DNA of 24,442 bases from a virus. Both the position numbers and the translations under genes were made by a program. The notes under the pieces are model-generated. The model did not search any database. It was not told the DNA's origin and saw only the letters and a program-made list of their open reading frames with translations. The stretch lies in the UHGV virus genome UHGV-1686243, one strand, 5' to 3'. Of the stretch, positions 1,448-20,842 are shown in pieces. Positions within the stretch are counted from its first letter, which is position 1. Each line of letters opens with the position of its first letter.

Positions 1448-1857
1448 TGAATACGTCATATGCAGTTATTGAAAATGGGATGGTTGTGAATGTCATTGTC
1501 TGGGATGGCGAGGCTGAATTCACAGTGCCGGATAATCAGCAGCTCATTAATATTTCTGATATCAGTGAGCAGCCCGGAATCGGCTGGGTGTATTCAGACG
1601 GGGGATTTACTGCACCACCCACTCCGGAACGTTCTCATGATGAACTGGTAGCTGACGCTGAACAGAAAAAACAGTCGCTGATTGATACCGCAATGGCTTC
1701 CATTAGTCTTATTCAACTGAAATTACAGGCCGGACGGAATCTTACGCAGGCTGAAACCACCCGTCTTAACGCTGTGTTGGATTATATCGATGCGGTGACC
1801 GCAACGGATACCAGCACTGCACCAGATGTCAATTGGCCAGCGTTCCCGGAGGCGTAG
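1447..1857 (+). CDS. tail-fibre assembly protein (Tfa / gpU-like chaperone)
   Basis: ATG at 1447 overlaps the fibre stop (TAATG). The protein is 136 aa. The C-terminus (...LNAVLDYIDAVTATDTSTAPDVNWPAFPEA) resembles the conserved end of P2 G / Mu U / lambda Tfa-type chaperones. Position directly after the fibre gene fits. Confidence 0.75.
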   Translation: MNTSYAVIENGMVVNVIVWDGEAEFTVPDNQQLINISDISEQPGIGWVYSDGGFTAPPTPERSHDELVADAEQKKQSLIDTAMASISLIQLKLQAGRNLTQAETTRLNAVLDYIDAVTATDTSTAPDVNWPAFPEA

Positions 1858-1864
1858 CCCATTA

Positions 1865-2148
1865 AAAAAATATCTGGAGCGCTGGAAGTAACGACTGGTT
1901 CCAGTGCATCCAGATAAGATGATTACTGTTCATGCTTCAAGAGCGAGCGCATACTGCATCCAGGCCAATCTAACTTTCATTCGACCAGAGTGTCACCTCT
2001 CAAAAGCATTTTTTAACTCTGGTCGTTCAGCTTTTTTGCCGCTCGCCTTATCCTCAAAAATTAGCTCACATCCTGCGCTTTCAAGGGCATTTCGTTGCAA
2101 AGCGGTGTTTTGGTCATTTGTTGATATGCGAATGTATCCAATAAGCAT
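1865..2148 (-). pseudogene. remnant of a Cin/Gin/Hin-family serine DNA invertase (frameshift, nonsense codon, internal and 3' deletions)
   Basis: Minus-strand ATG at 2148 gives MLIGYIRISTNDQNTALQRNALESAGCELIFEDKASGKKAERPELKNAFER-stop (stop at 1995-1993). This matches the invertase N-terminus as recalled for Gin (MLIGYVRVSTNDQNTDLQRNAL...), including the catalytic-Ser region. Further matches continue in the -1 frame (GDTLV, then KLD-W-PG-CSM with TGA where W is expected, then TSSAP-DIFLMG), and the remnant ends against the tfa stop. Confidence 0.75.
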
Positions 2149-2251
2149 ATGTCTCCCTTGTATGCTAAGGATACGATTCTAGAAGATGTCCTGTAAGGAA
2201 ATAACAAACTGACTAAGTTAGTGGCGCATTAGATGTTATTTCTGGAGGGGT

Positions 2252-2578
2252 ATGTTTGCAGATTATGAAAATCTGGCTGTAGTAGTCATAACATCCCTAC
2301 TAAGTGGAACCGGCGTATTCCTTCTCGGAGTCAGAGACGGGCGCATTTCTGCGTCCCTGCTCAATCTTGCGAGTGAATTGTTTACTGCGGTAACAGCCGG
2401 GCTTGCGGGGTATGGGGTGGCGGTTAGCCAAGAATGGCCTGAAGGTATCATTTTCTGCGTTGTTCTGATTGCCAGTAACAACGGAAGAGAAATTTTACAG
2501 GGCTTGAAGTCCAGAGCTAGTAACGTCTTGAATCTCTTAAGCGTAATAGCGAATGGGGGAAAAGGTGGAGAGAAATAA
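2252..2578 (+). CDS. holin-like small membrane protein (position and size of P1 LydA)
   Basis: RBS GGAGGGG sits 2 nt upstream of ATG 2252. The 108-aa protein has three hydrophobic segments and a charged C-terminus (...GGKGGEK). The next gene starts at its stop codon (TAATG). Confidence 0.5.
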   Translation: MFADYENLAVVVITSLLSGTGVFLLGVRDGRISASLLNLASELFTAVTAGLAGYGVAVSQEWPEGIIFCVVLIASNNGREILQGLKSRASNVLNLLSVIANGGKGGEK

Positions 2579-3024
2579 TGGGTAACTTTGGGAATTATTT
2601 CATTTTTATCATGGCATTTGTTGCCATCATTGACCGTTTCATTTTTCGTCGCAAGAGTGTTGAGATTTTGAGTATTGGTGACGCTGTAGTGAAAGAATCC
2701 GCTATAGCGTTTCCTGTTTCGCTACGTGTTAAGCGAAGCTGGGTCAGCAATGCTCAAATCGAATATTGGTTGCAAGACCTGAAAAATCCATCTGTGGTTA
2801 TTTCAGGGAAAACGCGACCAGTTGACGCCTCAAAACGCGGTGAGAGAGAAGAGTATTTGCTCATCGATACGAAATATCTTGAGCCAACGAAGTGGGATCT
2901 GAAAGTCACATTGACTAACGGTAACTGCCGACTGAATCCGCTTTATCGCATTTTCCCTATCAATGACTGCATAGAGCGCCAGTTTACGATCGAAAAGCGT
3001 GAAGGAGACTGGGATGTCAAATAA
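2578..3024 (+). CDS. N-terminally membrane-anchored lysis-accessory protein (LydB-like position, putative)
   Basis: ATG overlaps the upstream stop, with RBS GGTGGAG. The 148-aa protein has one N-terminal hydrophobic helix (NYFIFIMAFVAIIDRFIF). Function is inferred only from synteny with the holin-like gene. Confidence 0.35.
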   Translation: MGNFGNYFIFIMAFVAIIDRFIFRRKSVEILSIGDAVVKESAIAFPVSLRVKRSWVSNAQIEYWLQDLKNPSVVISGKTRPVDASKRGEREEYLLIDTKYLEPTKWDLKVTLTNGNCRLNPLYRIFPINDCIERQFTIEKREGDWDVK

Positions 3025-3634
3025 GAATAATTATGTTCTTCTTAATTATGATGAGTTAAACGAAAAGGGGCTGGCAAAACTCGTCAAAGAAATCAGCAAA
3101 GGTGGTTACAAGATAGCGAGGGTGATCCCTGCAAGTAATGGCAGGAAGAAAGATGGGATCATGACGCGCACGTTTACCCTTATTGGTCTTGATGAACAGA
3201 CAATGGAAGTTCAGGTTAACGATACCGGTGATATATCTGGGATCAAACTGAATGGTAAAACAGTGCCGTTCAAGCCAGTAAAAACAATGTCGGCTTTGGG
3301 GCAATCTCTTGCGGCTTTATTTAATCGCGGAGCAACTTCTTTCCAGAAGTCATTAGCTCGAAAACTTGCTCGTGCAGCAAAAAATATTGATGACGAAAAT
3401 AAGAAGCGGCAGGGAGTTAAATCCAACGCTCAGAGATTAGCTGAAGCGAAAGAATCACGTGATGCACTCCGTGAAGATATCGCTAATGCTAACGACAAAC
3501 TGTCTAAACTCCAGAGCAAGTCAGACAAAGTAATGCAAGATACGGGTAACGTTAAAGCTGCCTTGTCTCAGGAAGTAGCTAAGACACGTGCTCTTAAAGA
3601 AGAAATCGCGCGCCTGGAGGATGAGCATGATTAA
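3014..3634 (+). CDS. Hdf-like protein (shorter paralog of the downstream DarA-like protein)
   Basis: RBS GGAG is 6 nt before ATG 3014. The 206-aa protein has a block ...MSALGQSLAALFNRGATSFQKSLARKL... and a K/E-rich coiled coil that parallel ...LSQVCQALSNLIERNSEKFKKAKERQD... and the coiled coil in the next ORF. Confidence 0.5.
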   Translation: MSNKNNYVLLNYDELNEKGLAKLVKEISKGGYKIARVIPASNGRKKDGIMTRTFTLIGLDEQTMEVQVNDTGDISGIKLNGKTVPFKPVKTMSALGQSLAALFNRGATSFQKSLARKLARAAKNIDDENKKRQGVKSNAQRLAEAKESRDALREDIANANDKLSKLQSKSDKVMQDTGNVKAALSQEVAKTRALKEEIARLEDEHD

Positions 3635-5552
3635 CAATCCTTTACGAATTAATATTCAGTCTACTTTTGCTGATACGATCCCCGGCTATATGCCAGGTCG
3701 CTGGTCTTCAGAAGAATTAAGCGAAGATGACCTGATTTTTGAGGCGGCGACCTTAGAAGATATTGAGCTTGCCTATATGGGCAATGAAATTCTGGTTGTG
3801 TCTGACGAAGCTATGTTTGAGTCCATAACTACAACCAGAATTCGGTTAGCTCAAACAATGCGAGCTTTCGTCCGTGCGCTGAATCGTGGCCTGAATGGTA
3901 CGAATATTATGGCAGGGACTGATGAAGCCGGGACCGATGAAAATGGACGTAATTGTATTGGTGGTGCGATTATCGGTCGTGTACGTCGGGTAGCTAATAT
4001 CCCTGTTTTGACCGCGCAGATACCGCTTACTGACGGGCAGAGTACAAGCATAATTTTCCACTCTCCAACAGCTGACGGGGCAAAAATAAAGAGTAACGAC
4101 GAGCTTGTTGCATTTCAGTTTTTACTTAATAAGCGTAACGTAACTCACGTTGTCGCCCCGATTGGTGGGAGAGATGTTTCTTTAAGCCAGGTATGCCAGG
4201 CGCTATCTAATTTGATTGAGCGTAACAGCGAAAAATTTAAGAAAGCAAAAGAGCGCCAGGACAAAATGAAGGCAGATATTGAGAGTTATCTCAATGAAGC
4301 AGATAAACTGGCAGAAGAACGGTCAATAACAATTGATCAGGTGGACGTTGCGCAACGTGGGCTGACTGAAAAGCGTGCTGCTCTTACGGAGATGCAAAAA
4401 AAACTTGATGCCCAGAAAGCCATCAACGAGGAATTACAAGAAAAACGCGATAAATTGTTGTCTGCTAAAGGTAAAAAAACGAAGGAGCGAGCGTTTAGTG
4501 ACCAGCTGCGACATGTAAAACATAATCTTGCCATTGACGGAAAAACAGTGCTGGATAATGGCGCTGAAGTTAATTATATCACGTCCGGCAGTGACAATTT
4601 CGTTACGATAGTAGCACCTGAAGGTAAATTCAGTATTGATGCCAGTGCTGTCAAAGGAGGCAGTTTGGCAGATGCTGCAACCAAATTACTTAAAGCCTAC
4701 CGAGAGCATAACGCAGATAAATATAAAGTTGATGTGTTACCAGGCCAGCAGGAAGACTCCGAACCACCACAGACAGCCCCCGAGACGAACCCAGTATCAC
4801 AACCAGAGAGCCAGGATGTAGGTAAATACCACTATGCACTTCAATCTCGCCCGGCTGGTGTTGGTGCTGTGCCGGATGGGAATAAAGCCGTGCTTGATCG
4901 TCCTGACCAGGCTGATCAGTATTACGAATATGCTCGTCACGGTATCATTACGTATGACCGTAAACTGACAGATGAAGAAGTCAGCCAGTACGAGTTGCTC
5001 TATCTTCCTGATGAAGATGAGCTGAAAGATTTTGCAGGCCAATTGGTTGTGTCCAGCATGTCGAAACATATTGATGGCTATGTAGACCTGTTTGGCAGTG
5101 ACCTGAAAACATTCAAGGCGCAAGTGAAAATTCTTTTCCGCAAAGCGTTTCCAAACGTGGCGTATCCACTTGGTGATGGGGAGAACCTTTTCATTATGGA
5201 CGTGTATAACGCCCTTCAAAATCATTCAAGCGAAGTAAAAACAGAGCATGTGGTTGAGCCGGAATCACAACCACAACCAGCACCAGAACAGGAGCCGGAG
5301 CCAGAAGAAGCTGGTGAATCAGCAAGTGAAGCTGATCAGGAGGCAGATAAAGCACTGGAGTACCTGAAATCCGTGCCGGAGCAGTTTACATCCCGCGATC
5401 TGACGGTCATCAGTGCTGAACTTGATCATGTGCAGGAAGCAGCAAACGCTCTAATCAGTGCAGGTCGATACGACGAGAACGAAGCCACTGTTGGTGCAGC
5501 AGTTGACTACCTGATCAACATTCTGGCTGAAATTCAGCAGGGAGGTGCTTGA
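3627..5552 (+). CDS. DarA-like capsid-internal protein (putative anti-restriction component)
   Basis: ATG 3627 lies 6 nt after GGAGG; ATG 3621 is an alternative start. The 641-aa protein has a central coiled coil and acidic Pro/Glu-rich linkers (EPESQPQPAPEQEPEPEE). It shows paralogy to the upstream ORF, and its size and position match recalled P1 DarA. Confidence 0.45.
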   Translation: MINNPLRINIQSTFADTIPGYMPGRWSSEELSEDDLIFEAATLEDIELAYMGNEILVVSDEAMFESITTTRIRLAQTMRAFVRALNRGLNGTNIMAGTDEAGTDENGRNCIGGAIIGRVRRVANIPVLTAQIPLTDGQSTSIIFHSPTADGAKIKSNDELVAFQFLLNKRNVTHVVAPIGGRDVSLSQVCQALSNLIERNSEKFKKAKERQDKMKADIESYLNEADKLAEERSITIDQVDVAQRGLTEKRAALTEMQKKLDAQKAINEELQEKRDKLLSAKGKKTKERAFSDQLRHVKHNLAIDGKTVLDNGAEVNYITSGSDNFVTIVAPEGKFSIDASAVKGGSLADAATKLLKAYREHNADKYKVDVLPGQQEDSEPPQTAPETNPVSQPESQDVGKYHYALQSRPAGVGAVPDGNKAVLDRPDQADQYYEYARHGIITYDRKLTDEEVSQYELLYLPDEDELKDFAGQLVVSSMSKHIDGYVDLFGSDLKTFKAQVKILFRKAFPNVAYPLGDGENLFIMDVYNALQNHSSEVKTEHVVEPESQPQPAPEQEPEPEEAGESASEADQEADKALEYLKSVPEQFTSRDLTVISAELDHVQEAANALISAGRYDENEATVGAAVDYLINILAEIQQGGA

Positions 5553-5920
5553 TGACCATCTCTGTTTTAGACCGCCTGAAATTAGGTAAAGAGCTATCAG
5601 ATCTAATGCAGGCGCAGAAAACTGCGCCAGTATTGCAACGCGTCACCATTGGTAAGCAGATTGTTGATGTGATGCTGAAATTGGGCCTGGGGACTGCCGC
5701 GCAACCGGCAGCGGAACCGCAACAACAGACTGATCCTGTTGTAGATGAAGTCCCTAAGATAGTGACTGACTTCCTGGGCGGTGTCTTCACAAAGTCCACA
5801 CAAATGGAATTTATTGATGCGCTGCGTGGGATCTCAAACTATGTTGGCGAGTTCCTTACGTTGGAGCAGGCTAAAGAGCAGACCATAAGCTGGGTGAAAG
5901 CTAACGGTTATGCCGGGTAA
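5552..5920 (+). CDS. small hypothetical protein (occupies the DdrA-like position)
   Basis: ATG overlaps the upstream stop (TGATG), with GGAGG 6 nt upstream. The protein is 122 aa with no recognisable motif. Confidence 0.4.
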   Translation: MTISVLDRLKLGKELSDLMQAQKTAPVLQRVTIGKQIVDVMLKLGLGTAAQPAAEPQQQTDPVVDEVPKIVTDFLGGVFTKSTQMEFIDALRGISNYVGEFLTLEQAKEQTISWVKANGYAG

Positions 5921-5923
5921 TCA

Positions 5924-5945
5924 AAAGGGGCTGAAATGCCCCTTT
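5924..5945 (+). terminator. hairpin after the small ORF (weak intrinsic terminator or RNA-stability element)
   Basis: AAAGGGGC-tgaaat-GCCCCTTT forms an 8-bp stem, but the following T-tract is short (TTTC). Confidence 0.3.
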
Positions 5946-6014
5946 CACTTATCTGTTCTCACATAAATCACACACTTTTTACACTCACAGCTTTCTCTAT
6001 AGTTGGAGTGTATT

Positions 6015-7400
6015 TTGAACAAATCAGTTACTTCTGCGCTTTCCGGGGCCGCAGATATTAACAGCGTCATTGCTCTGGTTTCTTCATTAGAGAGGAAAGA
6101 AACACGCCTGGGGCGAAGTAGCTACGTAGTCACCAGCAAAGGTGCAGAGGTAAAGACGGCTTTTAAGGTCGTTGATGCCAGCAGTCTGATCATTTCGAAC
6201 AACCTTGACGGTACGATTAACCCGGCCTTCCCGGAAGAACTCCAACCACGAGATCGTACCCGGTTATCCAGCAAACTCCAGGTTAACCGTATTGCCTCCA
6301 ATTTACGCCCGGCACAATTAACGGATTCCGGTATGAGCAGCCACGGAGCGCCGATAGTTGGTCCGGACAACGTTGTTGAATCCGGCAACGGAAGGAGTAT
6401 GGGTATCTGGCGTGCCTATGAGCAAGGACAGGCGGATGAGTATCGCCAGTACCTGATCGACCATGCGAAAGAGTTTGGTCTGAATCCTGACGAAATTTCG
6501 CAAATGTCTATGCCCGTACTGGTGCGAGAAAGACTCACAGATGTAGACCGCGCTCAATTTGCCCGCGATTCAAACATTAGCGATCTGCAAGAGATGGCAG
6601 CAAGTGAAAAAGCGTATGCGGATGCGCAATTTCTCACTGAGAGCGTCATGGCGCTATTTAATCCTTCAGATGATGGAAATCTGCTGGCGCGGTCCAATGA
6701 TGCGTTTATTCGTGCGTTTTTGCGCGAAATTGGCGATACAGCGACAGCAGGCTTGCTTACTGCCGATGGGCGTCCCACGAAACAGCTTATCGATCGCATC
6801 CAGAATGCAATTTTTGCCAAAGCGTACAAGGATGAAAGGCTTGTTCGGCTGGTGTCGGAAGAGCCAGATCCGGAAATGCGTAATATCCTGACCGCATTAA
6901 ATACGGCAGCCAGCGATTTTGCGCAAATGCAGTCGCTGTCTGGCGACGCTCACCATGACGCAGTAACAGGCTTAGTGGACGGTATAGAGCAGGTTAATGG
7001 CCTGGATACACAGGCGATAGCAGCACTCCAGGAAGCAATTAATCTTGTACGTGAAGCCAAAGACAACGGTCAGGCCGTTGAAGAAGTGATCGCCCAAAGG
7101 GGGTTATTCGGCGACAGTACACCGGAAGCTGAGGCATTGGCGTTATTCATCGTAGCAAATAATCGCAGTGCGAAGCGTATGGGGGCAGCATTCAAAAAAA
7201 TGGCGCAAAAAATCAACGACGAGCTGACTCATAAACAACAGGCATTGGGCGATATGTTCGGCGGTGGCGATGTTGATCTGCGTCGTATTTTGTCTGCTGT
7301 ATCTGATGAAATTGAGGGTGAATTTGGCGAAGGGAAAGGTCTGAACTTTGCTATGTTTGAAAATTCTACAGATCTAAATAATTGCCGTACGGAAAACTAA
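6015..7400 (+). CDS. ParB/Srx-fold domain protein (possible DdrB-type virion protein)
   Basis: Start is uncertain: TTG 6015 has GGAG 7 nt upstream, TTG 6003 has none. The N-terminal region ...RLSSKLQVNRIASNLRPAQLTDSGMSSHGAPIVGPDNVVESGNGRSMGIWRAY... fits the ParB-nuclease pattern (S..G.PI.V...vv.G.hR..A). Confidence 0.4.
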   Translation: MNKSVTSALSGAADINSVIALVSSLERKETRLGRSSYVVTSKGAEVKTAFKVVDASSLIISNNLDGTINPAFPEELQPRDRTRLSSKLQVNRIASNLRPAQLTDSGMSSHGAPIVGPDNVVESGNGRSMGIWRAYEQGQADEYRQYLIDHAKEFGLNPDEISQMSMPVLVRERLTDVDRAQFARDSNISDLQEMAASEKAYADAQFLTESVMALFNPSDDGNLLARSNDAFIRAFLREIGDTATAGLLTADGRPTKQLIDRIQNAIFAKAYKDERLVRLVSEEPDPEMRNILTALNTAASDFAQMQSLSGDAHHDAVTGLVDGIEQVNGLDTQAIAALQEAINLVREAKDNGQAVEEVIAQRGLFGDSTPEAEALALFIVANNRSAKRMGAAFKKMAQKINDELTHKQQALGDMFGGGDVDLRRILSAVSDEIEGEFGEGKGLNFAMFENSTDLNNCRTEN

Positions 7401-7464
7401 ACCAACCGCTGAAATCACATACTGATTATGCTGCCGCAAAACTGGAAACAATTTGCGGTGATTC

Positions 7465-9147
7465 ATGGCAACGAAAGACAAAAACAAAGGCTTTCTGTCA
7501 GCATTGAAGAAAGCCTTCAACGGTGGTGATGTTACGCCCGCCGATCCGGTCGTTTTTACGAGCGGACATAGTGTCGTTGCTCGTTCCGGCCTGTCTGCTT
7601 TACGTCCAGGCATCCTGGGGAGCAATAGCGATGGCATGACGAGTGAAGCAGATTCAATTTCTTTATCCGCTGAACTGCCCGGCGAGCGCCTGCAAAAGTA
7701 CAACATCCTGGAAACGATGGCTAAAAGCCCGACTATCTCGACGGCTTTAAATATTCACATTGCACATGCGCTTGCGCCTTCAAAAAAAACCGGACAAGCA
7801 TTCATCCTTTCGCCAAAGGATGGTTCCGATGCCGAGGCAGTAAGTAGATGTGAAGAGTTAACCGCTGATTTGGGGGCGATGATTAATGACGGACTTCCTT
7901 CATGGGCCATGATTATGGCGATCTTTGGGGTGTCTTATGTCCGACCTTATGCTGAACAGGGCAGGGGGATAACAGGCATTGAGTCCAGTTATTACACTCT
8001 GCCACACTTCGTCCAGGAGTTTTATCGTGGTAGCCAGCTGGTAGGTTTCAGTGGTGATTACATTCTGGATACGCATAGTTTGCGCAGAGTAATAACCGAA
8101 CCGTGGAATCTGGTTTCCATGAAAAATCCCTATTGGACGCCACAGCATAAAGTTATTCCGGTTAGCTACGGCACAAAAGGGTACTCACTGTTAAGTGATC
8201 AGGCTGATAAGCCGTTAATGGAGACGCAGAATTACGGAACTTCATTCCTGGAATACAGCTATGAACCTTACCTTAATTTATGTGCTTCGCTCGCCGCGCT
8301 GAAATCAACGCGAAATAATGCAGCCAAAATTGACCGCCTGATTGCTCTTACGACGAACACACTGGACCCGGTTAATGCGGCGAACTATACGCGTGGCGTC
8401 AGCCAGGCATTGAAGCGTCATAGTGACCTGGTGGCGCAAAGGTCGATTAATGCCAACGCTATTCCGACTGTGCTTAACCATCTGATACCTGTTATGGGAG
8501 ACGGGAAGAACGGCATCACCATTGATACGCAATCCATACCCGCAGATATCAGTGGTATTGAAGACGTTATGTTTCACCTCCGGCAGCTTGCTGCAAGCCT
8601 CGGCATTGACGCAACAATGCTTGGCTGGGCTGATCAGATGAGCGGAGGGCTTGGAGAAGGCGGCTGGCAGCAAACTGCTATCCAGGCTGCATTGCGTGCG
8701 AACTGGATCAGACAGGCCGCCCAGCGAACTATTTATCGGCTTCTGGACATTCACCTCGCTTATAAATACGGCAAGGTTTACACCGAAACAAACCGCCCTT
8801 ATGACGTGCAATTCAACTCAATGAACACTGCTATCCAGGAAGAGGAAAACCGAGAACTGGATGCACGCGCCAACTTTGTTGCTGTCATCTCCCAAATTAT
8901 GGACCAGATCCAGAACAACCCGAAACTGGCTGGTAGCGACGCGTTTATGCGTTATCTGTTCACTGAGCAGTTGCACATCGACGATGACACTCTCAACACC
9001 ATGATCAAAGAGTTTAAGGCGAATGAATCAGAGCAAAACAACGAGCATGGTATGTACGAATCCGCGCCGTTGTCGTCCGGTGACGATCCGGAAAACTGGA
9101 CGCCAGAACAGTTAATAAACTTTGCAAAATTTGTGATGAGCAATTAA
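7465..9147 (+). CDS. portal-like head protein (putative)
   Basis: The 560-aa protein has no Walker A motif, so it is not a large terminase. Its size and its position directly before a coiled-coil protease/scaffold-like gene suggest a portal. The call is weak. Confidence 0.3.
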   Translation: MATKDKNKGFLSALKKAFNGGDVTPADPVVFTSGHSVVARSGLSALRPGILGSNSDGMTSEADSISLSAELPGERLQKYNILETMAKSPTISTALNIHIAHALAPSKKTGQAFILSPKDGSDAEAVSRCEELTADLGAMINDGLPSWAMIMAIFGVSYVRPYAEQGRGITGIESSYYTLPHFVQEFYRGSQLVGFSGDYILDTHSLRRVITEPWNLVSMKNPYWTPQHKVIPVSYGTKGYSLLSDQADKPLMETQNYGTSFLEYSYEPYLNLCASLAALKSTRNNAAKIDRLIALTTNTLDPVNAANYTRGVSQALKRHSDLVAQRSINANAIPTVLNHLIPVMGDGKNGITIDTQSIPADISGIEDVMFHLRQLAASLGIDATMLGWADQMSGGLGEGGWQQTAIQAALRANWIRQAAQRTIYRLLDIHLAYKYGKVYTETNRPYDVQFNSMNTAIQEEENRELDARANFVAVISQIMDQIQNNPKLAGSDAFMRYLFTEQLHIDDDTLNTMIKEFKANESEQNNEHGMYESAPLSSGDDPENWTPEQLINFAKFVMSN

Positions 9148-9160
9148 CCGGAGGGAAATA

Positions 9161-10159
9161 ATGCAATCACTGAATACTGTTACGGATCGCTTCTCCCTGG
9201 TAGAGAAAATCCGCAAACACACACCGCAGAACAACCGAAATTACGTCATTCAGTCGGTACGAGACACATTCAACTCGCCAGAAACAAAAGAGCGTATCGC
9301 GCTGGGTGAGATGTATGGTTATTACGGTCATGGTCGCCGGGCGATGCACTATAACAAAACGAAAAGCCTGAACTTGCCGGAAGTCTCTGTTGTGATGGTA
9401 GATGGGAAGCCTGTTGTATTGGAGAACGTGCCGTCAAACAGGACTATCGACATTTCGATTGACGACAACGGCATTGTTACTCATACGCAGGAAATACTGG
9501 ATACAGACACCGGGCGTATTGTTCAGGGCATGATTAATTCTGGTGCTGGTGGTTGGTCGTGGGCTACATCTGGTCCAGATTCATCGGTATCCCTGGTAAA
9601 GTCTTTCCACGGCTTTGATTACGTAACTGTGCCTAACTATATCAGCCTCGACAAGAAAAGCCTGATGCTTGAATCAGCAGAAGAGCGCGATGCGGCTATT
9701 CATGCAGCACTTATCGAACAAGGTTTTACCGATAACGCTGCTACGGATCTGGTTCACCACTTTTCAGCAATGAAAAATCAGCAAGCCATGCTCGAATCTG
9801 CACATCGTGAAGCCCTGGAATCAGAATTGATGCTCCTTGAAGTGGAAAACATACAGCTTCGAGATAAGCTGCGCGCTCAAACAGCGATGATGGAAAGCCA
9901 GGGGGAAAATGCAAAGCAATGCCGCCGGATTTTGCGTGAAGCTATCCAGGAAATGCCTGTTTTTATCAGCGCAGAACAGCGCCGGGCGCTCTGCCGTATG
10001 CAGTCTGAAGATGATGCCCGCATAGTGGCTGCGATGCTTGAATCTCTTGGGGCAAATGCTACTTATGGCTTACCGGTATCAGGCAAGAAAGAACCAGAGT
10101 TATCACCGAAGGAGAACAAAAACACTACCCCGTTACTCTTCGTTTCCAGAAGGGGGTAA
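9161..10159 (+). CDS. head morphogenesis protein (putative prohead protease/scaffold with C-terminal coiled coil)
   Basis: RBS GGAGGG is 5 nt before ATG 9161, 13 nt after the portal-like gene. The C-terminal ~120 aa are heptad-like and Ala/Glu/Leu/Gln-rich. No catalytic residues could be assigned by eye. Confidence 0.3.
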   Translation: MQSLNTVTDRFSLVEKIRKHTPQNNRNYVIQSVRDTFNSPETKERIALGEMYGYYGHGRRAMHYNKTKSLNLPEVSVVMVDGKPVVLENVPSNRTIDISIDDNGIVTHTQEILDTDTGRIVQGMINSGAGGWSWATSGPDSSVSLVKSFHGFDYVTVPNYISLDKKSLMLESAEERDAAIHAALIEQGFTDNAATDLVHHFSAMKNQQAMLESAHREALESELMLLEVENIQLRDKLRAQTAMMESQGENAKQCRRILREAIQEMPVFISAEQRRALCRMQSEDDARIVAAMLESLGANATYGLPVSGKKEPELSPKENKNTTPLLFVSRRG

Positions 10160-11386: not shown

Positions 11387-11736
11387 TTAATTTGCTGTTT
11401 CTAAATCGGAATGTATGATCTGCATCATCGACTGAAATCATCCATTGCTGAAATTTTTAGTTGATCTTCCATGTTTTCAGGCTTATATTCATGTCGTCGT
11501 AGCAAATTCTGCGACCGGGTTTAGCAGCCTGAATACGAATGCGGACAACCGCAGATATCCGATATTGCGGTATTTTTGTGTCCGTAAAACCACGTTACGC
11601 CCGAATTATGGTGGGGCGTGATGGGGAGGCTTCGGCCTGCTGGTTTCATTCGTGCCAGTCTGCTAACCCCGTCACGTCCTGCCACCCGTTTAGCAGCGGG
11701 GCGCAGGTTGTTAAACCTACGAATGAGGCCGTAACT

Positions 11737-12873: not shown

Positions 12874-12898
12874 GCCCCGGCCTGGCCGGGGCTTTTTT
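12874..12898 (+). terminator. intrinsic terminator ending the antirepressor operon
   Basis: GCCCCGG-cctgg-CCGGGGC followed by TTTTTT. It abuts the stop of the convergent minus-strand gene. Confidence 0.65.
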
Positions 12899-13534: not shown

Positions 13535-16500
13535 TTGGACAAACTACTTCATTCAATCAGTGAAGCCTCCAGCTTAGGCGAACTGATTGAAATTGTTAGT
13601 CGGTTGCATAAATTACGTGCTGTTGCGACCTTTGGCGTCAGGAAAGCCGATGGCGTCAGTATTCAGAAAACACGCCGGGCAGCAAACAATGCCGCAGTAA
13701 ATCTTCTTAATTCCCTTCCGCCCGGCTTCGATGGGGCGAAATTAACTGACAAACAACGTCAGATTCTTGCTGGGTATACCGGTGAAGGCGGCCTGACAGA
13801 TGGTGAGGGCAGCCAATACGAATACTACACGCCACAGTTTATGGCTGAAGGTATATGGGATCTGTTTGCTGACTACGGTATTGATGGCGGGCACGTACTG
13901 GAACCATCAGCGGGCACAGGTATTTTCCAGGAGACAAAACGGCAGGGCATGATAATGACCAGCGCCGAACTGTCTCCGATTTCCGGTCGAATAAACCAGC
14001 TTTTGCACCCGGAAGACGATGTGAATATCGGGGCGTTTGAGGCGCTGGCAGCGAAAGACGCAATGTATGATCACGCTGTTGGTAACGTACCGTTTGGTGA
14101 AGGGCGTTCCGGTGTCGCCGGGCTTGATCCGGCATATGCAAACGAGAAGAACGTTGGCAATTACTTTGTGCTGCGCACGATCGACAAGGTTAAGCCTGGT
14201 GGGCTTATCGTATTGGTGGTGCCAAATGGCATGACCGATGGTACGAAATATAAAAAATTGCGCGATAAAGTCAGCCGTAAAGCGGAATTTTTGGGCGCAC
14301 ATCGTATGCCTTCCGGTACGTTCAGCGAATCCGGTACAGATACCGTGGTGGACGTATGGGTATTGCGTAAACACCCGGAAACCTTCCTGGAGATGATCCC
14401 CGACACGGATGATTCAACACTCAAATCGGCAAACGTCCTTTGGGATACCTTCCTCAAAGGAAAATGGTTTACAACCGAAGGGAAGCGATTTGTTTACGGC
14501 GACATGGAACGTACCAGCTTCCGCAATACCCTGGTGGTGAAAAAAGACGGTCGTGTATCCAATGAGTCGATGAAAACCGCGCTATCTCGTCGCTTTGATA
14601 GTCGCATCAATTGGGATTTGCTCGGCGTAACTACTCAGGCATGGCAGGGCGCGAAAGTGGGCGATAAACGCCTTGTAGGCGGTATCTGGCATGAGTTTGA
14701 TGGTCTGAAATGGGTTAAGGACACGACAACCAAATCCTCCGCGCTTGATGTAAGTCGATATGGTGTTTCGACGTTTGGCGATCTGCAGATCGCGTTTCAG
14801 TCAACAAATGGCATTCTGGCTTTGTCATGGGACCAGATATCGGCGATCGCGTCTGACTATCCATCGGTTGTCAGTGATGAAGTGGCAGCAATGATTCGCT
14901 TTGCTGGCAAGCAGCGAGAAAAAGACAGGGAGCGCGTTATGCGCGGTGCACTGATAGGTCAGTTGATCAACAAGGCACTTGATTTGCGTAACCTGGGGGT
15001 GAACGTTGATGACAAACTGGCAGATGCATCCCGCCTGGCGGCAGCAGAAGTTGCGAAGTATGGACCACCGCACGCGATTAAGCTGAATGGGCTTGCTGAA
15101 GCTGGCGCTAAAAACTGGATGACGTTCACTGGCAATGTGAAACAGGATGGTTCCACTTCTGACCTTCTGGCAGGGCGACTTGATGTAACGGATGGTGCTG
15201 CCGGTATTGACTTTACGCGTCCTGAACAAGTGATAGCACATCTTTTTAGTGATGTAGCCCTTAATCCTATAACGCTGGGCGACTTTCGTGAGGCGTTTGC
15301 TGGTGAACTGCCAGAGGACGACGACGCGGCCCTTGAATACCTGGCGAAATTTGATGATATCGCTATTGATGGGTATGGCTGTCTGCTGCCGATGGACCGC
15401 GCCACCAGCGGCGATGTTGCAACCAAAACAGCACTGCTGGTGGGCTGGCGTGATGCGTCAACAGGTGAGCAGAAAGCGAACTTTGAGCGTCAGTTGGCGA
15501 AAATCGAAGAGAAACGTATTTTCACGCCACTAAATAAAGTCACCGTTAATCTGAATGCCCGCTGGCTGGATCGCCGCTTGATAAAAGAGTTCCTGGCAGA
15601 GCAGGGCTATGACGAGTTTAAGTACACTGAACCTGATCTGAAGGTCGTCGATGGCATTCTGGTATCTCCGGACGATTACGAAGGTAAGGACGGTGTATTT
15701 ACCGGCTATCAGCTACGAACCGTAAACGGCAAAAACGGGAATGAGTTCAAGAAGGCCAACAATAAAGACGGCTTCCTGAACCAGTTAGAAAACTACCTGA
15801 ACGGTGTTAAACCGCGTGGGCAGAACGCTAACGAGTACCTGGATAAAATTGCTCAACTGGAAGTTAGCTTTAACGACTGGTTACGCACCCACCCGCAGGC
15901 GGATCAGATAGCCCGTGACTATAACGACGCATTCAATGGTTTCATTCCGTTCACACATTCTGACGCACCGCTAGGCCTGGAAGGGATTAGTGGAAAGCGC
16001 ATTCCTCTGACTTATCAGAATGAAGAAGTTCGCCGCTTGTCAGAAGATGGGCGTGGCATCATGGGATTTGGTACCGGGCTGGGTAAAACCACGACCGCGC
16101 TTGCGCTTGAGGCGTATAACTTCGAAACAGGTCGCACTAAACGCACGTGTATTGTTGTTCCGAAGGCGGTTTATCAGAACTGGTATCACGAGGCACAGAG
16201 TTTCTACAGTGCTGATGCCTTCGCCAATATGATGTTTATCGGTTTGGATGAAGTTCGTGATGACGGCGGAAATATTCTTACCGCGCCAGTGCTTGATGAA
16301 AATGGCGAACCACGCCTCGACAGTAACGGGCAGCCTCTTACCAGAAATGTTGTGAAAGAGTCCGCCAGCGCCGTTATCGTTCAGCGCATGAACATGATCC
16401 CGTCGTCAAATTGGCGAACGGTCATCATGACAAAAGAACAATTCGCGTCTATCCCGCTACGAGAAAAAACCATCGAGGAGAACTCACAGCAAGCTGTCTT

Positions 16501-19500
16501 TAATGCTGTGGAAATGGGGCGTCTTGACCTGGCGTCCGGTAAACACCGTGATGCGCAGAAGAAGAACAAGATTAAGGATCAGGCCGCGAATACCGGTACA
16601 ACGAAGAAGCAGAATATCCCGTACTTTGAGGATATGAACTTCGATAGCGTGATTGCCGACGAGGGGCATAACTACCGCAACTCCTTTAATGCCGGGCGTG
16701 AAGCGGGACAACTGGCATATTTGCCTAACCCGGCAGTATCCAAGATGGCCCGCGACATGGCTGTAAAAGCTGCGTACATGATGAAACGCAACAACGGGCG
16801 TGGTGTAGTCATGCTGACGGCAACTCCGCTGGTGAACAGTCCGATTGATGCCTTCAACATGCTGTCTACTGTCATTCCGCAGGAAGAGTGGATGCGCATG
16901 GGCATCATTACGCCTGATGATTTCGTTCGTGTGTTTGGCAAAACAGCCACAGTTCAGGTCCAGAAAATTTCCGGGGAAGTGGAAGAGAAGCAGGGGCTGG
17001 TGGGCTTCCAGAACCTTGACGGCCTGCGTGGTATTTTCCATCGTTGGACCACTCTGAAGACTGCTGCAGATGTCGGAGCGACGGTTAAAATTCCAGACAT
17101 CATCGAGAACACCTTGCAGATCCCGATGACAGGGGAGCAGGAGACTGCTTATGAAGAGCTTCGTAAGCGTGCTCAGGAGTTAAGTCGCAATGATGAGCTG
17201 ACAGTCGATGAAAACGGGCATATCACTAACGACAAACCGGATGATTTCATCTTCTCCATCATCCGCGACATGGACAAGGTTGCTATAGACCCGGATCTGT
17301 ATGCCAGTGCGATTACATTCCAGTTCCCCGTTGAGCTTGCAGACCAGGTAAAAGCTATTGCTGATGCCTTGCCAAAAGTAGCTGGCGGTAAAGTGGCAGA
17401 TGATGTTGATGAGGCCGAGGAAGACGGCGCTGGCGGGCTGGTCAGTACGCGTACCAGCAAGGTAGTGAAGACCGCTTTTAGTGAACATCCGACGCATGTT
17501 GAAATACGTGCCAGCATTGAACTGGAAGCTGAAATACTGAAGGCCATTGCGGCTGCCGGTATTGATATGCAGCAGGTATCGCACCCCATCCCGCCGAAGT
17601 ATGCCGCGCTGATCGAAAATCTTCGTGAAGGTCTGAAGAACGGTAAGCAGATCGTCTTTATTGATGAAAAAGCCCAGCACCAGAAGCTGCGCCGTATTAT
17701 CGCCAGTGCACTGCAAATGCCGGAGCAGGAGATTGGCATTATCAATGCGACGACAGTTAGCCAGGCTGGCGGCATCAAGCTGAAGAAGGTGAATAAGCCG
17801 ACCGAACCTACTCCAAACAAAAACGGTGAATACAAAGAAGGGGCATGGGAAACCTACTACAGCAAACTTGCACAATATGAGGATTATCTCTCAGCTAAAA
17901 ATGATGCTGGCCTTGAGGGCATGGAAGGTATTGCCGCCGACTATAACGAAGGTCGCACGCGCATCATAATCTGTAACAAGAAGGCTGAAGTAGGTATTAA
18001 CCTGCACATCGGGACAACCGATATCCATCACCTGACACTACCCTGGACACCAGCCAGTATCGACCAACGAAATGGGCGCGGTGCGCGCGTAGGTTCACCG
18101 CAAGAAAAGGTCAATGTTCACTACTATTGTGGCAAAGGCACATTCGACGACTTCCGTCTGGATACGCTGAAACGTAAGAAAGACTGGATCAAGATGGTGA
18201 TGACATCCGACATGTCAGAGATCGCCAATGGTGATGCGGATGATGCTGATGAACGCGCCATTATGCTGGCGGCAAACCCGGAAGAACGCCGCGCAATCAT
18301 GGCTCGCCAGGCGCAAGAGCGTGAAGAACGTCTGAAACTGAAAGCACAGCGCGAGGCCAACAATGCTCTCGATATCTACCTGAAAGCGGCAAACGCCGCC
18401 GGAAAAGATATCGGCATGATGGAGACAGAACTGAAAAGCGCGATGGAACAGATAGAGCATTACCAGCGCAATCTTGACGACCTGATAAAAGCGGGTACGA
18501 ACAGGAATGGGCAAAAATACGCGCTTGAGCAGTTGAGTAGCTACAGAAAACGTGCGCGGGTGCTGAAGTTTGCGATCACCAGGGCAAAAGACGCGGATAC
18601 CATAATGAAACGCTCTCGTGGTGATGTGGAGCGCGCTATTAAGTCTGGTGTGCTGGATATCAGTATCGATGTTATTCAGAACCCACAGGAATATATGCGC
18701 ACTGACAAGAATATCCTGTTGCATAAAGGTAGTTATTACCGTGCAGTCATTGATGATCGCGAAACAACAGCGATTGTCCGGGTGGAAAAAATTGACGGTG
18801 AAAAAGCACAATACCTCTGCCGTATCGCCTGGCTGGATAGAGCAAGTCGTTACGCTCGAGCACCGGGGTCAATCGTTACATTGCCGTTTGACTCTGTGAT
18901 TGAAGCGGTAACTTTTGAAGAGGGGGTTGCTGAATCGCGCGCAACGGCTGCGCGTGGTGTTCAGTGCCACCAGCTATCAACAATACTTACTCGCGATCAG
19001 TTCTATGATGCTATTCGCAATGGGGTAATGAATGTTATTGCTGGTAAACCTGGTAATGCATGGGGCGGTGGGTCAGCTATTAAATACTGGGCATATCGCA
19101 CAGATGATGGTCAGATCGCGCTGTCATCGGCCTATGATGGCGTGATAGGCCAAAAAATCGGGCGAGCATCGGATATAGCACCTGAGCGATGGATATATCC
19201 TGATGGCAACGACGAGGCGCTGAAGCGTGAAGTGGCAAAAATACAAGCCAGTGATAACCCGCTGAATATCGTGGACGGCGAGGGATTCCTCCAGGCATTG
19301 TATGGGTATGATTACACCCAGGGAATGCAGGCATGGGGCGCACAGGCAACGATGGATGATGTTGCCCAGGAGTTCGAAAACTGGATGGCTGGGCGTGGTC
19401 TGTCAGGTCGTTCGCTTAATAAAGTCACTTCTGAAGATATTCTTAGCTTGTTCCGCAAACCGTCCGGAGAAGGTCTGGAATCATTCTGGAGGACCGTGCT

Positions 19501-20371
19501 GGCATACCGTTTATTCCAGGGCAGGATGAAAGCCTTTAGCAATATCGATGATATTGAACGGATGTTTAATCAGGTCAAGATCGCGAAAATTAAGGCGAAG
19601 ATCGAAAAAACACGTTCTGCGCTGGTGGCCTGGCGCGATGCATTGTTTGAGCAATATAAATCACTCAGTGATGCAGATGGATGGGCGGCATTGGAACAGC
19701 TGGCGAATAATGGGGTAGATGGAGCGAAACTCGCCATTGTTCAGGCTGATAACCCCCTGGAATCACCGGCAGCACAGTGGATTAAGGTGGGGGCTGTCAT
19801 CAATGCATTTGATGAAAAACACATTAGTAAGGACGATTTTGCTGATGCTGTTTCTGTTAATCGCCTGGTAGAAATGGCTACCCGCCGCGCACGTGAGTTG
19901 AAAGACGGCGACTATGTGAATGAGTTGCCGGATACGCTCAAATCGGCAACGTGGCAGGACTATGTATCGCTGAAAAACGGCGGGGCCACTGAATCAGAGA
20001 TCGCGGAAAGGCTTGAGCAGGCTGAAAGCAAAAGAGAAGAGCAGGCGGCAGTGGCTGAAGCCAGAGCTGATGAAGCGGCGAATGATGACTATATCATTGT
20101 GGTTAATGATAAGCCGATTCGCGCTAAGGCGCGTGTTCGCGGGCGCTGGTGGAGCGTCAGCGAGGACGTTGGCGCGGTTTATCTCATTGCCGACCAACCA
20201 GGTTCCTCGACAATACGGAACGCCAAAGACGCGATTAAGAAGATTGGCGGGCGTTTCTGGAATTTTGAAGCAAACCCGGTTGCTGATGTGAACTTTGACC
20301 GTCCTGCATGGATGGTATCTACGCGTTACTCGGTAGATGAACTGCGTAAAATAATCGCCGATGCGGCCTAA
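13535..20371 (+). CDS. darB: DarB-like giant anti-restriction protein: N6-adenine methyltransferase fused to an SF2 (DExH/SNF2-like) helicase
   Basis: TTG start 7 nt after a strong AGGGGG RBS. 2,278 aa. MTase motif I VLEPSAGTGIF and motif IV-like GNVPFGE; helicase motifs GFGTGLGKTTTALAL (I), VIADEGHNYRN (II), VMLTATPLVNS (III), IDQRNGRGARVG (VI). Size and architecture match recalled P1 DarB (about 2,255 aa). The gene symbol is assigned by architecture and synteny, not by alignment. Confidence 0.7.
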   Translation: MDKLLHSISEASSLGELIEIVSRLHKLRAVATFGVRKADGVSIQKTRRAANNAAVNLLNSLPPGFDGAKLTDKQRQILAGYTGEGGLTDGEGSQYEYYTPQFMAEGIWDLFADYGIDGGHVLEPSAGTGIFQETKRQGMIMTSAELSPISGRINQLLHPEDDVNIGAFEALAAKDAMYDHAVGNVPFGEGRSGVAGLDPAYANEKNVGNYFVLRTIDKVKPGGLIVLVVPNGMTDGTKYKKLRDKVSRKAEFLGAHRMPSGTFSESGTDTVVDVWVLRKHPETFLEMIPDTDDSTLKSANVLWDTFLKGKWFTTEGKRFVYGDMERTSFRNTLVVKKDGRVSNESMKTALSRRFDSRINWDLLGVTTQAWQGAKVGDKRLVGGIWHEFDGLKWVKDTTTKSSALDVSRYGVSTFGDLQIAFQSTNGILALSWDQISAIASDYPSVVSDEVAAMIRFAGKQREKDRERVMRGALIGQLINKALDLRNLGVNVDDKLADASRLAAAEVAKYGPPHAIKLNGLAEAGAKNWMTFTGNVKQDGSTSDLLAGRLDVTDGAAGIDFTRPEQVIAHLFSDVALNPITLGDFREAFAGELPEDDDAALEYLAKFDDIAIDGYGCLLPMDRATSGDVATKTALLVGWRDASTGEQKANFERQLAKIEEKRIFTPLNKVTVNLNARWLDRRLIKEFLAEQGYDEFKYTEPDLKVVDGILVSPDDYEGKDGVFTGYQLRTVNGKNGNEFKKANNKDGFLNQLENYLNGVKPRGQNANEYLDKIAQLEVSFNDWLRTHPQADQIARDYNDAFNGFIPFTHSDAPLGLEGISGKRIPLTYQNEEVRRLSEDGRGIMGFGTGLGKTTTALALEAYNFETGRTKRTCIVVPKAVYQNWYHEAQSFYSADAFANMMFIGLDEVRDDGGNILTAPVLDENGEPRLDSNGQPLTRNVVKESASAVIVQRMNMIPSSNWRTVIMTKEQFASIPLREKTIEENSQQAVFNAVEMGRLDLASGKHRDAQKKNKIKDQAANTGTTKKQNIPYFEDMNFDSVIADEGHNYRNSFNAGREAGQLAYLPNPAVSKMARDMAVKAAYMMKRNNGRGVVMLTATPLVNSPIDAFNMLSTVIPQEEWMRMGIITPDDFVRVFGKTATVQVQKISGEVEEKQGLVGFQNLDGLRGIFHRWTTLKTAADVGATVKIPDIIENTLQIPMTGEQETAYEELRKRAQELSRNDELTVDENGHITNDKPDDFIFSIIRDMDKVAIDPDLYASAITFQFPVELADQVKAIADALPKVAGGKVADDVDEAEEDGAGGLVSTRTSKVVKTAFSEHPTHVEIRASIELEAEILKAIAAAGIDMQQVSHPIPPKYAALIENLREGLKNGKQIVFIDEKAQHQKLRRIIASALQMPEQEIGIINATTVSQAGGIKLKKVNKPTEPTPNKNGEYKEGAWETYYSKLAQYEDYLSAKNDAGLEGMEGIAADYNEGRTRIIICNKKAEVGINLHIGTTDIHHLTLPWTPASIDQRNGRGARVGSPQEKVNVHYYCGKGTFDDFRLDTLKRKKDWIKMVMTSDMSEIANGDADDADERAIMLAANPEERRAIMARQAQEREERLKLKAQREANNALDIYLKAANAAGKDIGMMETELKSAMEQIEHYQRNLDDLIKAGTNRNGQKYALEQLSSYRKRARVLKFAITRAKDADTIMKRSRGDVERAIKSGVLDISIDVIQNPQEYMRTDKNILLHKGSYYRAVIDDRETTAIVRVEKIDGEKAQYLCRIAWLDRASRYARAPGSIVTLPFDSVIEAVTFEEGVAESRATAARGVQCHQLSTILTRDQFYDAIRNGVMNVIAGKPGNAWGGGSAIKYWAYRTDDGQIALSSAYDGVIGQKIGRASDIAPERWIYPDGNDEALKREVAKIQASDNPLNIVDGEGFLQALYGYDYTQGMQAWGAQATMDDVAQEFENWMAGRGLSGRSLNKVTSEDILSLFRKPSGEGLESFWRTVLAYRLFQGRMKAFSNIDDIERMFNQVKIAKIKAKIEKTRSALVAWRDALFEQYKSLSDADGWAALEQLANNGVDGAKLAIVQADNPLESPAAQWIKVGAVINAFDEKHISKDDFADAVSVNRLVEMATRRARELKDGDYVNELPDTLKSATWQDYVSLKNGGATESEIAERLEQAESKREEQAAVAEARADEAANDDYIIVVNDKPIRAKARVRGRWWSVSEDVGAVYLIADQPGSSTIRNAKDAIKKIGGRFWNFEANPVADVNFDRPAWMVSTRYSVDELRKIIADAA

Positions 20372-20407
20372 CAGATAAGGAGCGGCCCCAACTGGGGCCG
20401 AATTTGA

Positions 20408-20842
20408 ATGACGACATTAATTGACACTGTAAAACCGACGGAATCCTACCTTGAGGACATTTTGCCGCAGGCGCTCAATGGCAGGAGTGAAGAGGCGTTT
20501 CTGGATGCATATCTGAATGGCATGGTGGAAAGGCTGAAACGAGATCCACAGCTTTATCACCTTTATGGGCCGTGGTGGCCTGCGCTTAAAACGTTATTGC
20601 TGGAGCGCGGCGACATATCATTTGGACAAGTTGTAGATAGTGATGTGGCAGAGATCTACAAAATGAGTCGCCCGGCGCTTACGGTTTTGGCTGGGCATCT
20701 GTATTCGAGCGATCGCCTGGAAAATGACGCGGTATACAATCCTGTTCATGCTCTGGAAGTCGCACCTTATGCCGATGATACAGAGCCATACGTGTACACA
20801 AGTTACGACGAGTCTATAGAGAAATATCGAATTATGGGGTAG
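20408..20842 (+). CDS. hypothetical protein (144 aa)
   Basis: ATG start. A GGCCCC-aact-GGGGCC hairpin sits between the darB stop and this start. No recognisable motif. Confidence 0.5.
   Translation: MTTLIDTVKPTESYLEDILPQALNGRSEEAFLDAYLNGMVERLKRDPQLYHLYGPWWPALKTLLLERGDISFGQVVDSDVAEIYKMSRPALTVLAGHLYSSDRLENDAVYNPVHALEVAPYADDTEPYVYTSYDESIEKYRIMG

Follow-up and report, generated by a model that had tools for sequence, protein, structure and literature searches.

Gene content and layout of the locus

The 24,442-nt stretch of viral DNA analysed here (UHGV virus genome UHGV-1686243, hereafter the window) comes from a D6-like E. coli phage-plasmid, with 95-96% DNA identity to phage D6 over positions 1948-7360. 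At least 96 plasmid records cover at least 80% of the window, and elements of the D6 type are frequent in both E. coli and Salmonella. The lysis, Dar and head genes described below all lie on the + strand; identities and E values to P1 proteins were obtained with BLASTP.

The operon begins with the holin gene lydA (2252..2578), whose product is 43% identical to P1 LydA (E 4e-23), matches the PHROG 1527 holin family (E 4e-39) and is called lydA-like in the D6 annotation. It is followed by lydB (2578..3024), encoding the holin antagonist (34% identity to P1 LydB, E 8e-29; Pfam LydB, 87.4 bits). Next come hdf, a name that presumably stands for 'homolog of DarA fragment' (3014..3634; 206 aa; 40% identity to P1 Hdf, E 2e-31), darA (3627..5552; 641 aa; 39% identity to P1 DarA over 620 aa, E 6e-141) and ddrA (5552..5920; 122 aa; 33% identity to P1 DdrA, E 9e-22). 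A hairpin (5924..5945) then precedes a short form of ddrB (6015..7400; 461 aa; 64% identity to P1 DdrB residues 2-442). Directly 3' of ddrB lie two head genes: prt, for the portal protein (7465..9147; 50% identity to P1 Prt; PHROG 1497, E 6.5e-230), and pro, for a prohead protease homologue (9161..10159; 43% identity to P1 Pro, E 6e-84). Further downstream, darB (13535..20371; 2278 aa; 43% identity to P1 DarB over 2000 aa) is immediately followed by a ulx homologue (20408..20842; 144 aa; 46% identity to P1 Ulx over 138 aa, E 3e-43), which matches the darB-ulx order of P1.

The genes are tightly packed. Overlaps of 1 nt join lydA to lydB and darA to ddrA, while lydB and hdf share 11 nt and hdf and darA 8 nt; the same overlaps occur in D6. 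A first-pass annotation of this DNA had placed the 206-aa and 641-aa ORFs directly after the lysis genes and likened the gene order to that of the P1 darA operon behind lydA/lydB. Both points are confirmed: the two ORFs occupy 3014-3634 and 3627-5552 behind lydA-lydB, and the order lydA-lydB-hdf-darA-ddrA-ddrB is that of the P1 record.

Phage D6 has the same gene set, gene order and overlapping starts, with orf30-orf25 (MF356679 / NC_050154) labelled lydA, lydB, hdf, darA, ddrA and ddrB. The Dar cluster of D6-like elements is thus already known, its genes bearing these names in both the GenBank and the RefSeq entry of D6. Some differences exist. About 1.1 kb between ddrB and prt of D6, with orf24 (a DUF4145 protein) and orf23, is missing from the window, and the two ddrB genes diverge over their last ~13 codons. 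Upstream of lydA, the cin invertase of D6 is intact and accompanied by an invertible tail-fibre segment; in the window a cin remnant is all that is left. An ORF on the + strand at 1904-2182 was rejected as a gene, being antisense to the cin remnant and without family matches.

Expression of the P1 darA operon depends on an Lpa-type late promoter, which has a -22 box and a -10. No convincing counterpart was seen upstream of lydA: a search with the boxes of six annotated P1 late promoters gave no exact match, and the only candidate is a weak variant of the -22 box, one base longer, at ~2204-2214 (AACAAACTGACT), 40 nt upstream of lydA. Scans of 1800-7600 for sigma-70 promoters and terminators returned counts no higher than those of shuffled sequences.

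Domain structure of Hdf and DarA

Hdf scores 63.9 bits against Pfam DarA_N (cutoff 27) and belongs to PHROG 1620 (E 4e-76). It matches the solved P1 Hdf (PDB 9ukm_H) at E 8e-26 over residues 3-199. Its AlphaFold2 model (pLDDT 80.8) consists of a DarA_N-type alpha+beta domain (residues ~11-91), followed by two long helices at 92-127 and 138-205.

DarA passes the NCBIfam equivalog NF052326 (anti_RE_DarA) over its full length, with 1146 bits against a cutoff of 350, and contains Pfam DarA_N (136.5 bits, cutoff 27) and DarA_C (68.2 bits). Among the P1 structures (9ukm/9vz0), its counterpart is chain 9ukm_I, found at E 6.7e-124 and recovered by Foldseek from the predicted model at E 6e-17. The earlier proposal that the 641-aa protein is DarA-like is therefore well founded, both on this match and on the BLASTP alignment to P1 DarA. 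In the predicted model a disordered segment (1-72) leads into the DarA_N domain (62-201) and a helix of ~96 residues (186-281). A second globular domain (306-366), DarA_C (399-462) and a helical C-terminus complete the chain. The predicted disorder agrees with the P1 cryo-EM study, in which DarA residues 1-69 are unseen and probably cleaved (PMC12810830).

DarB, Ulx and completeness of the Dar set

The alignment of DarB to its P1 namesake begins at residue 1. As in P1 DarB, an N6-adenine methyltransferase is combined with an SNF2-type helicase; this assignment relies on the Pfam domains N6_Mtase, SNF2-rel_dom and Helicase_C, as regular expressions for methyltransferase and helicase motifs are uninformative here because P1 DarB fails them too. 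The last ~340 aa have no match in P1 DarB and, conversely, P1 DarB residues 1900-2255 found no real match in the window by tblastn. A tblastn search of the window with P1 LydC, Hxr and Lxc likewise yielded no real match.

A DarB-like gene had been announced 8 kb downstream, and darB indeed starts 8 kb after darA and 6.1 kb after ddrB. Each of the four proteins Hdf, DarA, DdrA and DdrB, together with DarB, is significantly similar to its P1 namesake, as had been suggested. The system had also appeared to be complete; this holds, with the addition of Ulx, which the first reading had missed. Since the darB-ulx pair adds to the darA operon, all six Dar components are encoded. The region is very probably a D6-like darA operon with the full P1-type set, its mechanism being modelled on that of P1.

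In P1, the Dar proteins are packaged in the head, shape the capsid and shield the injected DNA from host restriction enzymes (PMC12810830, PMC9024508). Protection acts in cis on packaged DNA against the type I systems EcoA, EcoB and EcoK (PMC12707154, PMC12810830). It is conceivable that in the D6 lineage a Dar-homologous cluster serves capsid morphogenesis or stability only, with Hdf and DarA bracing the vertices from inside and determining head size. The two proteins are indeed head-size determinants and capsid/DNA anchors in P1 (PMC12810830; bioRxiv 10.1101/2025.11.26.689930; PMC9024508 Table 1), in the window DdrB is a short form and DarB diverges at its C-terminus, and a literature search found no published experiments on D6-like elements and no phenotype data for D6-like phages. 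We nevertheless regard a purely structural role as improbable: all six components are kept as intact ORFs, the cluster is conserved throughout the plasmid records counted above, and it includes the methyltransferase-helicase DarB as well as Ulx, two proteins to which roles in anti-restriction and DarB loading have been assigned in P1 (PMC9024508 Table 1).

DdrA, a short DdrB and an intergenic hairpin

DdrA belongs to the DdrA-like PHROG 1855 (E 5e-50), and its start agrees with the D6 annotation. For ddrB we place the start at the TTG at 6015, to which the D6 ddrB start also maps; a GGAG lies at 6005-6008. The protein has an N-terminal DdrB-type ParB domain (Pfam ddrB-ParB PF18763, 144 bits), across which it is 65% identical to P1 DdrB, the ESGNGR segment included.

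P1 DdrB is 995 aa long, and only its N-terminal 442 aa are matched by the window protein. A tblastn search of the whole window with P1 residues 443-995, the region assigned a metallopeptidase domain by Iyer et al. (PMC5512222), gave no match (best E 0.77). This C-terminal half is specific to P1 and its close relatives, being absent from D6 and many other phages. Short forms of ~350-450 aa that correspond to the same part of DdrB are found in unrelated Acinetobacter, Aeromonas, Pseudoalteromonas and Alcaligenes phages, so the P1 extension looks added rather than ancestral.

These data also bear on whether the 461-aa gene might be a decaying, truncated remnant of a P1-type gene, leaving the system incomplete. 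The restriction of the match to P1 residues 2-442 and the variable site just downstream, where D6 has its ~1.1 kb of extra genes, would both be expected of a remnant. Such decay is nonetheless highly improbable given an intact ORF, 96% protein identity to the D6 DdrB (likewise a short form), a complete ParB-type domain and the existence of the short forms in unrelated phages.

The hairpin lies directly 3' of the ddrA stop, within the 94-nt gap before ddrB; the same gap is 12 nt in P1. It has an 8-bp stem (AAAGGGGC/GCCCCTTT) and a 6-nt loop (5924-5945). The RNA fold of 5915-5960 has a free energy of -17.9 kcal/mol (z = -4.05), and none of 200 shuffled sequences was as stable. Its short T tract kept it from being called in the terminator scan.

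With 64% protein and 67% DNA identity, ddrB resembles its P1 counterpart much more than the neighbouring genes do theirs (33-46% protein identity). It is flanked by the hairpin on one side and by an indel-prone junction on the other. A recent cassette exchange between the P1 and D6 lineages would fit this pattern.

Paralogy of Hdf and DarA

The first-pass annotation had derived a paralogy of Hdf and DarA from one conserved block of 27 residues, said to be followed in each protein by a K/E-rich coiled coil. The block (Hdf 92-118, DarA 186-212) contains 8/27 identities and has a BLOSUM62 score of 33. By itself it is no better than chance: 93 of 300 shuffled Hdf sequences produced an ungapped 27-mer that scored at least as well against DarA, and the best such 27-mer between the native proteins falls within their charged helices. 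Pairwise BLASTP of Hdf against DarA detected no relationship either, its only alignment (E = 8) covering an unrelated stretch. What stands is the register, since the long helix of each protein begins with the block. The coiled coils also found support in the long predicted helices of Hdf (92-127 and 138-205) and DarA (186-281), which are 40-45% charged.

The paralogy itself is upheld by more sensitive comparisons. Both proteins pass Pfam DarA_N, and their predicted models share its fold, a helix plus a beta-sheet. When the two family profiles were aligned with hhalign (probability 96.1%, E 2.9e-9), Hdf 92 was placed opposite DarA 186. The globular parts align even without the helices (E 3.4e-6, 73 columns), and the register is unchanged. 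The signature residues of DarA_N (Pfam PF18788), an Asp and an N-x-basic motif described by Iyer et al. in 2017 (PMC5512222), coincide in the alignment: D60 of Hdf with D136 of DarA, and N80-G-K82 with N168-K-R170, all of them invariant in each family alignment. A Foldseek search of 350,542 PDB chains with the Hdf AlphaFold2 model returned two matches with E <0.001, both of them P1 DarA chains.

A chance or compositional match of two K/E-rich coiled coils, to which the shuffles, the position of the best 27-mer and the empty BLASTP would lend themselves, is scarcely credible against the helix-free alignment, the coincident signature residues, the Foldseek result and the relationship already published by Iyer et al., who define DarA-N as a domain that stands at the N-terminus of DarA and is the only one in Hdf (PMC5512222). 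Hdf and DarA are paralogues.

Comparison with P1 and proposed mechanism

The Dar cluster of the window is a real but ordinary counterpart of the P1 system. All six proteins are shared and their order is the same within each operon, as is their domain architecture, apart from the C-terminal differences in DdrB and DarB. The Hdf-DarA paralogy is common to both; the long helices predicted here correspond to those through which the two proteins pair under the capsid vertices of P1, as seen by cryo-EM (PMC12810830; complex structures PDB 9UKM and 9VZ0, solved in 2025-26). The differences are equally clear. Protein identity is only 33-46%, with DdrB at 64% an outlier; P1 DdrB residues 443-995 are missing; DarB ends in ~340 aa with no relation to the P1 protein; the ddrA-ddrB gap is longer and contains the hairpin; no Lxc homologue follows ulx; and prt-pro stands directly after ddrB, the operons being arranged otherwise in P1.

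The mechanism that we propose is taken from P1, the present analysis contributing homology, domain architecture, paralogy and synteny. By analogy, the Dar genes would be switched on late during infection. Hdf and DarA, each with a DarA_N domain and then a long charged helix, would pair by their helices into a parallel bundle, anchored to the inner capsid surface at penton-hexon junctions, and their positively charged N-domains would touch the packaged DNA. The large head size would be set by this scaffold, without which DdrA, DdrB, Ulx and DarB would not be loaded into the head. The Pro protease, thought to process DarA in P1 (PMC12810830, PMC9024508), would remove its N-terminal ~70 residues. 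At infection, the Dar proteins would leave the capsid with the DNA and guard it in cis from type I restriction. Virion packaging, DarA processing and an anti-restriction phenotype in the D6-like element are all inferred from P1.

Because identity to P1 is only 33-46% (DdrB apart), the specificity of the Dar set may differ. A stronger version, in which the D6-type set is a functionally distinct variant and not a plain copy of the P1 one, is possible, though we consider it rather unlikely. It points to the short DdrB without the peptidase half, the DarB with an unrelated C-terminus and the P1-close ddrB. A different spectrum of host defences countered would fit the D6-type pattern.

A full six-gene Dar set is relevant to how D6-like phage-plasmids cross restriction barriers. 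As a discovery it carries little weight: the D6 genes were already named, the Hdf/DarA domain link was published in 2017 and the P1 Hdf-DarA cryo-EM structures date from 2025-26. The short DdrB and the divergent DarB C-terminus, both natural variants, could help to map the regions of the P1 proteins that packaging and protection require.

T4 IPI* offers an analogy only: it too is packaged in the head, co-injected with the DNA and defeats host restriction (PMC12810830). It shows no sequence or structural relationship to Dar, however, and consists of one small inhibitor, which binds to the restriction enzyme. The six Dar proteins work in cis on the packaged DNA and are coupled to capsid assembly (PMC12707154, PMC5512222).

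A complete Dar set in a D6-like phage-plasmid

We compared the open reading frames and start codons of the window with those of Escherichia phage D6 (MF356679/NC_050154), a 91-kb circular plasmid prophage to which positions 2200-7500 are 96% identical. The whole 24.4-kb window matches 681 plasmids in PLSDB; at least 80% of it is covered in 96 of them, nearly all about 90 kb long, non-mobilizable and from E. coli or Salmonella. As judged from sequence, these matches place the window in a D6-like phage-plasmid.

Five genes follow each other with start/stop overlaps of 1, 11, 8 and 1 nt: lydA (2252-2578), lydB (2578-3024), hdf (3014-3634, 206 aa), darA (3627-5552, 641 aa) and ddrA (5552-5920, 122 aa). 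A search upstream of lydA found no clear P1-type late promoter. The 94 nt between ddrA and ddrB include a stable hairpin (5924-5945; -17.9 kcal/mol, z = -4.05). The ddrB gene (6015-7400, 461 aa) starts at TTG 6015 with GGAG upstream at 6005-6008. Further on lie prt (7465-9147), pro (9161-10159) and darB (13535-20371, 2278 aa). The open reading frame directly 3' of darB (20408-20842) encodes a Ulx homologue, so that the P1 order darB-ulx is kept. Within the 36 nt that separate the darB stop codon from the start of ulx lies a GC-rich hairpin, GGCCCC-AACT-GGGGCC, at 20381-20398.

In local BLASTP against the P1 proteins (NC_005856), identities are 43% for LydA, 34% for LydB, 40% for Hdf (E 2e-31), 39% for DarA over 620 aa (E 6e-141), 33% for DdrA (E 9e-22), 50% for Prt, 43% for Pro, 43% for DarB over 2000 aa from residue 1, and 46% for Ulx (E 3e-43); DdrB reaches 64%, only to residues 2-442 of the 995-aa P1 protein. 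The P1 Dar system consists of six proteins (PMC12810830, PMC12707154), and with Ulx all six are therefore encoded here. This homology supports the Dar-type interpretation of the first-pass annotation, and the complete set it proposed now includes Ulx, which it had missed.

Profiles agree with these assignments. Pfam finds DarA_N in Hdf and DarA, DarA_C in DarA, ddrB-ParB in DdrB and LydB in LydB; PHROGs assigns Hdf-like and DdrA-like families; and DarA, with 1146 bits, clears the cutoff (350) of the NCBIfam equivalog 'antirestriction phage head protein DarA'. The N6_Mtase, SNF2 and Helicase_C domains of DarB are those of P1 DarB. The DarA and Hdf chains of the P1 head structures 9UKM and 9VZ0 match the window proteins with E 6.7e-124 and 8e-26, respectively.

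The cluster is already known from D6 annotation and the P1 literature. D6 records label these genes 'similar to P1 gene lydA, lydB, hdf, darA, ddrA, ddrB', 'Hdf-like antirestriction' and 'DdrA-like anti-restriction protein' are among the RefSeq product names for D6, and a population study of D6-like plasmids describes anti-restriction modules with P1 homologues (PMC6799933).

Paralogy of Hdf and DarA

The paralogy was originally proposed from a block shared by the two proteins (Hdf 92-118, DarA 186-212). Taken alone, the block does not carry the claim: its 8/27 identities and score of 33 are equalled in 93 of 300 shuffles, and the best Hdf-DarA 27-mer sits elsewhere, in charged helices. Pairwise BLASTP detected no relationship between Hdf and DarA. 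Since the DarA_N model was defined on both proteins (PMC5512222), its hits are no independent test; we therefore built separate Hdf and DarA family alignments from database homologues and compared them with hhalign.

Hdf 40-206 aligns to DarA 116-284 with a probability of 96.1% (E 2.9e-9), and Hdf 92 is paired with DarA 186, exactly the register first given. Trimming the helices leaves an alignment of the globular parts (E 3.4e-6, 73 columns) in unchanged register. The DarA-N signature of Iyer et al., a conserved Asp and an Asn-x-basic motif (PMC5512222), coincides at Hdf D60/DarA D136 and N80-G-K82/N168-K-R170, residues invariant within each family.

For Hdf, AlphaFold2 predicts (pLDDT 80.8) a helix, a β-sheet and two further helices, 92-127 and 138-205. 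Among 350,542 PDB chains, Foldseek matched this model below E 0.001 only to P1 DarA (9vz0_I, 9ukm_I); the next match has E 0.07. In the DarA model, which matches 9ukm_I with E 6e-17, the N-terminal residues 1-72 are disordered and are followed by an α+β domain and a helix of 96 residues from 186. Models and alignments together thus identify the block as the start of a long helix in both proteins; the K/E-rich coiled coil described after it is borne out by 40-45% charged residues in both stretches. The first-pass observation is thus confirmed in part: its reading frames, their order and the paralogy of Hdf and DarA hold, whereas the shared block is not significant by itself.

Proposed mode of action by analogy with P1

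Cryo-EM of P1 shows 55 pairs of DarA and Hdf on the inside of the capsid where pentons and hexons meet, each joined by a parallel bundle of helical domains, with positively charged N-terminal domains contacting DNA; the pairs are absent from heads after DNA ejection (PMC12810830). In an independent preprint, these appendages are seen solely in large T=13 heads (bioRxiv 10.1101/2025.11.26.689930). Virions without DarA or Hdf lose all other Dar proteins, and the DarA N-terminus is trimmed, probably by Pro (PMC12810830; PMC9024508 Table 1). Protection acts in cis, on co-packaged DNA only, against type I systems (PMC12707154). By analogy, the Dar set of the window would most probably work in the same way, and each component of the P1 scheme, Pro included, is encoded in the window.

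Differences from P1 in DdrB, DarB and their surroundings

P1 DdrB residues 443-995 have no counterpart within the window; in this missing C-terminal half, Iyer et al. (PMC5512222) locate a metallopeptidase domain. Decay of ddrB is unlikely: when P1 DdrB was compared with phage genomes by tblastn, full-length matches were confined to P1-like phages and a single Cronobacter phage, whereas in D6 and several unrelated phages the match covers only about the first 400-450 residues, so that the short form is a normal state. Identity to P1 is 64% for the DdrB protein and 67% for its DNA (over 1151 nt), against 33-46% at the protein level for the other Dar proteins, and ddrB is set apart by the hairpin-containing gap. 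Both features hint at a separate history for ddrB.

About 1.1 kb of D6, with orf24 (a DUF4145 protein) and orf23, lies between ddrB and prt and is missing from the window: some 50 bp (7360-7412) stand in place of 8179-9290 of the D6 locus (L001), and the last ~13 codons of ddrB differ. The junction looks like a variable insertion site.

DarB residues ~1936-2278 (~340 aa; DNA ~19340-20371) show no similarity to the P1 DarB C-terminus and no Pfam domain, and no Lxc homologue was found after ulx in the window. The short DdrB and divergent DarB tail may alter the protection spectrum, and ddrB may be mobile as a cassette.

Antisense to ddrB, positions 6590-6985 (- strand) show 62% similarity to P1 'IddB' (132 aa), where a mechanical list has only shorter - strand reading frames (6554-6829 and 6318-6557). 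Most simply, this is a by-product of ddrB conservation and not evidence for a gene.

Other features of the window

Divergently from darB runs a gene (12898-13383, - strand) whose 161-aa product has a CHAP domain (Pfam CHAP, 31.5 bits) and matches PHROG 1259 'baseplate hub subunit and tail lysozyme' with E 1e-46; none of the 14 P1 proteins compared with it is a homologue.

A tail-fibre-like reading frame (89-1447, + strand) contains a 120-bp unit repeated in tandem 5.2 times (125-753, 92% matches), which encodes a 40-aa repeat (…GNAATATKLQTARTIGGVSFDGSANIDLPGVNKAGNQSTT…); the C-terminus of its product matches Pfam glycine-rich domain PF21722, and a tail-fibre assembly gene (1423-1857) lies 3' of it. 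A cin DNA invertase remnant follows at ~1938-2148 (- strand): over the first 49 codons it is 86-90% identical to Cin of P1 and D6, then come a frameshift and a stop. An intact cin and an invertible tail-fibre segment occupy this position in D6 and P1, whereas tail-fibre switching seems lost in this element. The + strand reading frame 1904-2182 overlaps the remnant and is probably spurious.

Between a repL-like gene (10360-11322) and a 250-aa reading frame (11916-12668), Rfam identifies on the + strand a P1-type C4 antisense RNA (11483-11535; 71.9 bits, gathering 45) and a1/b1 target sites (11604-11689; 52.2 bits), an immI-type immunity region.
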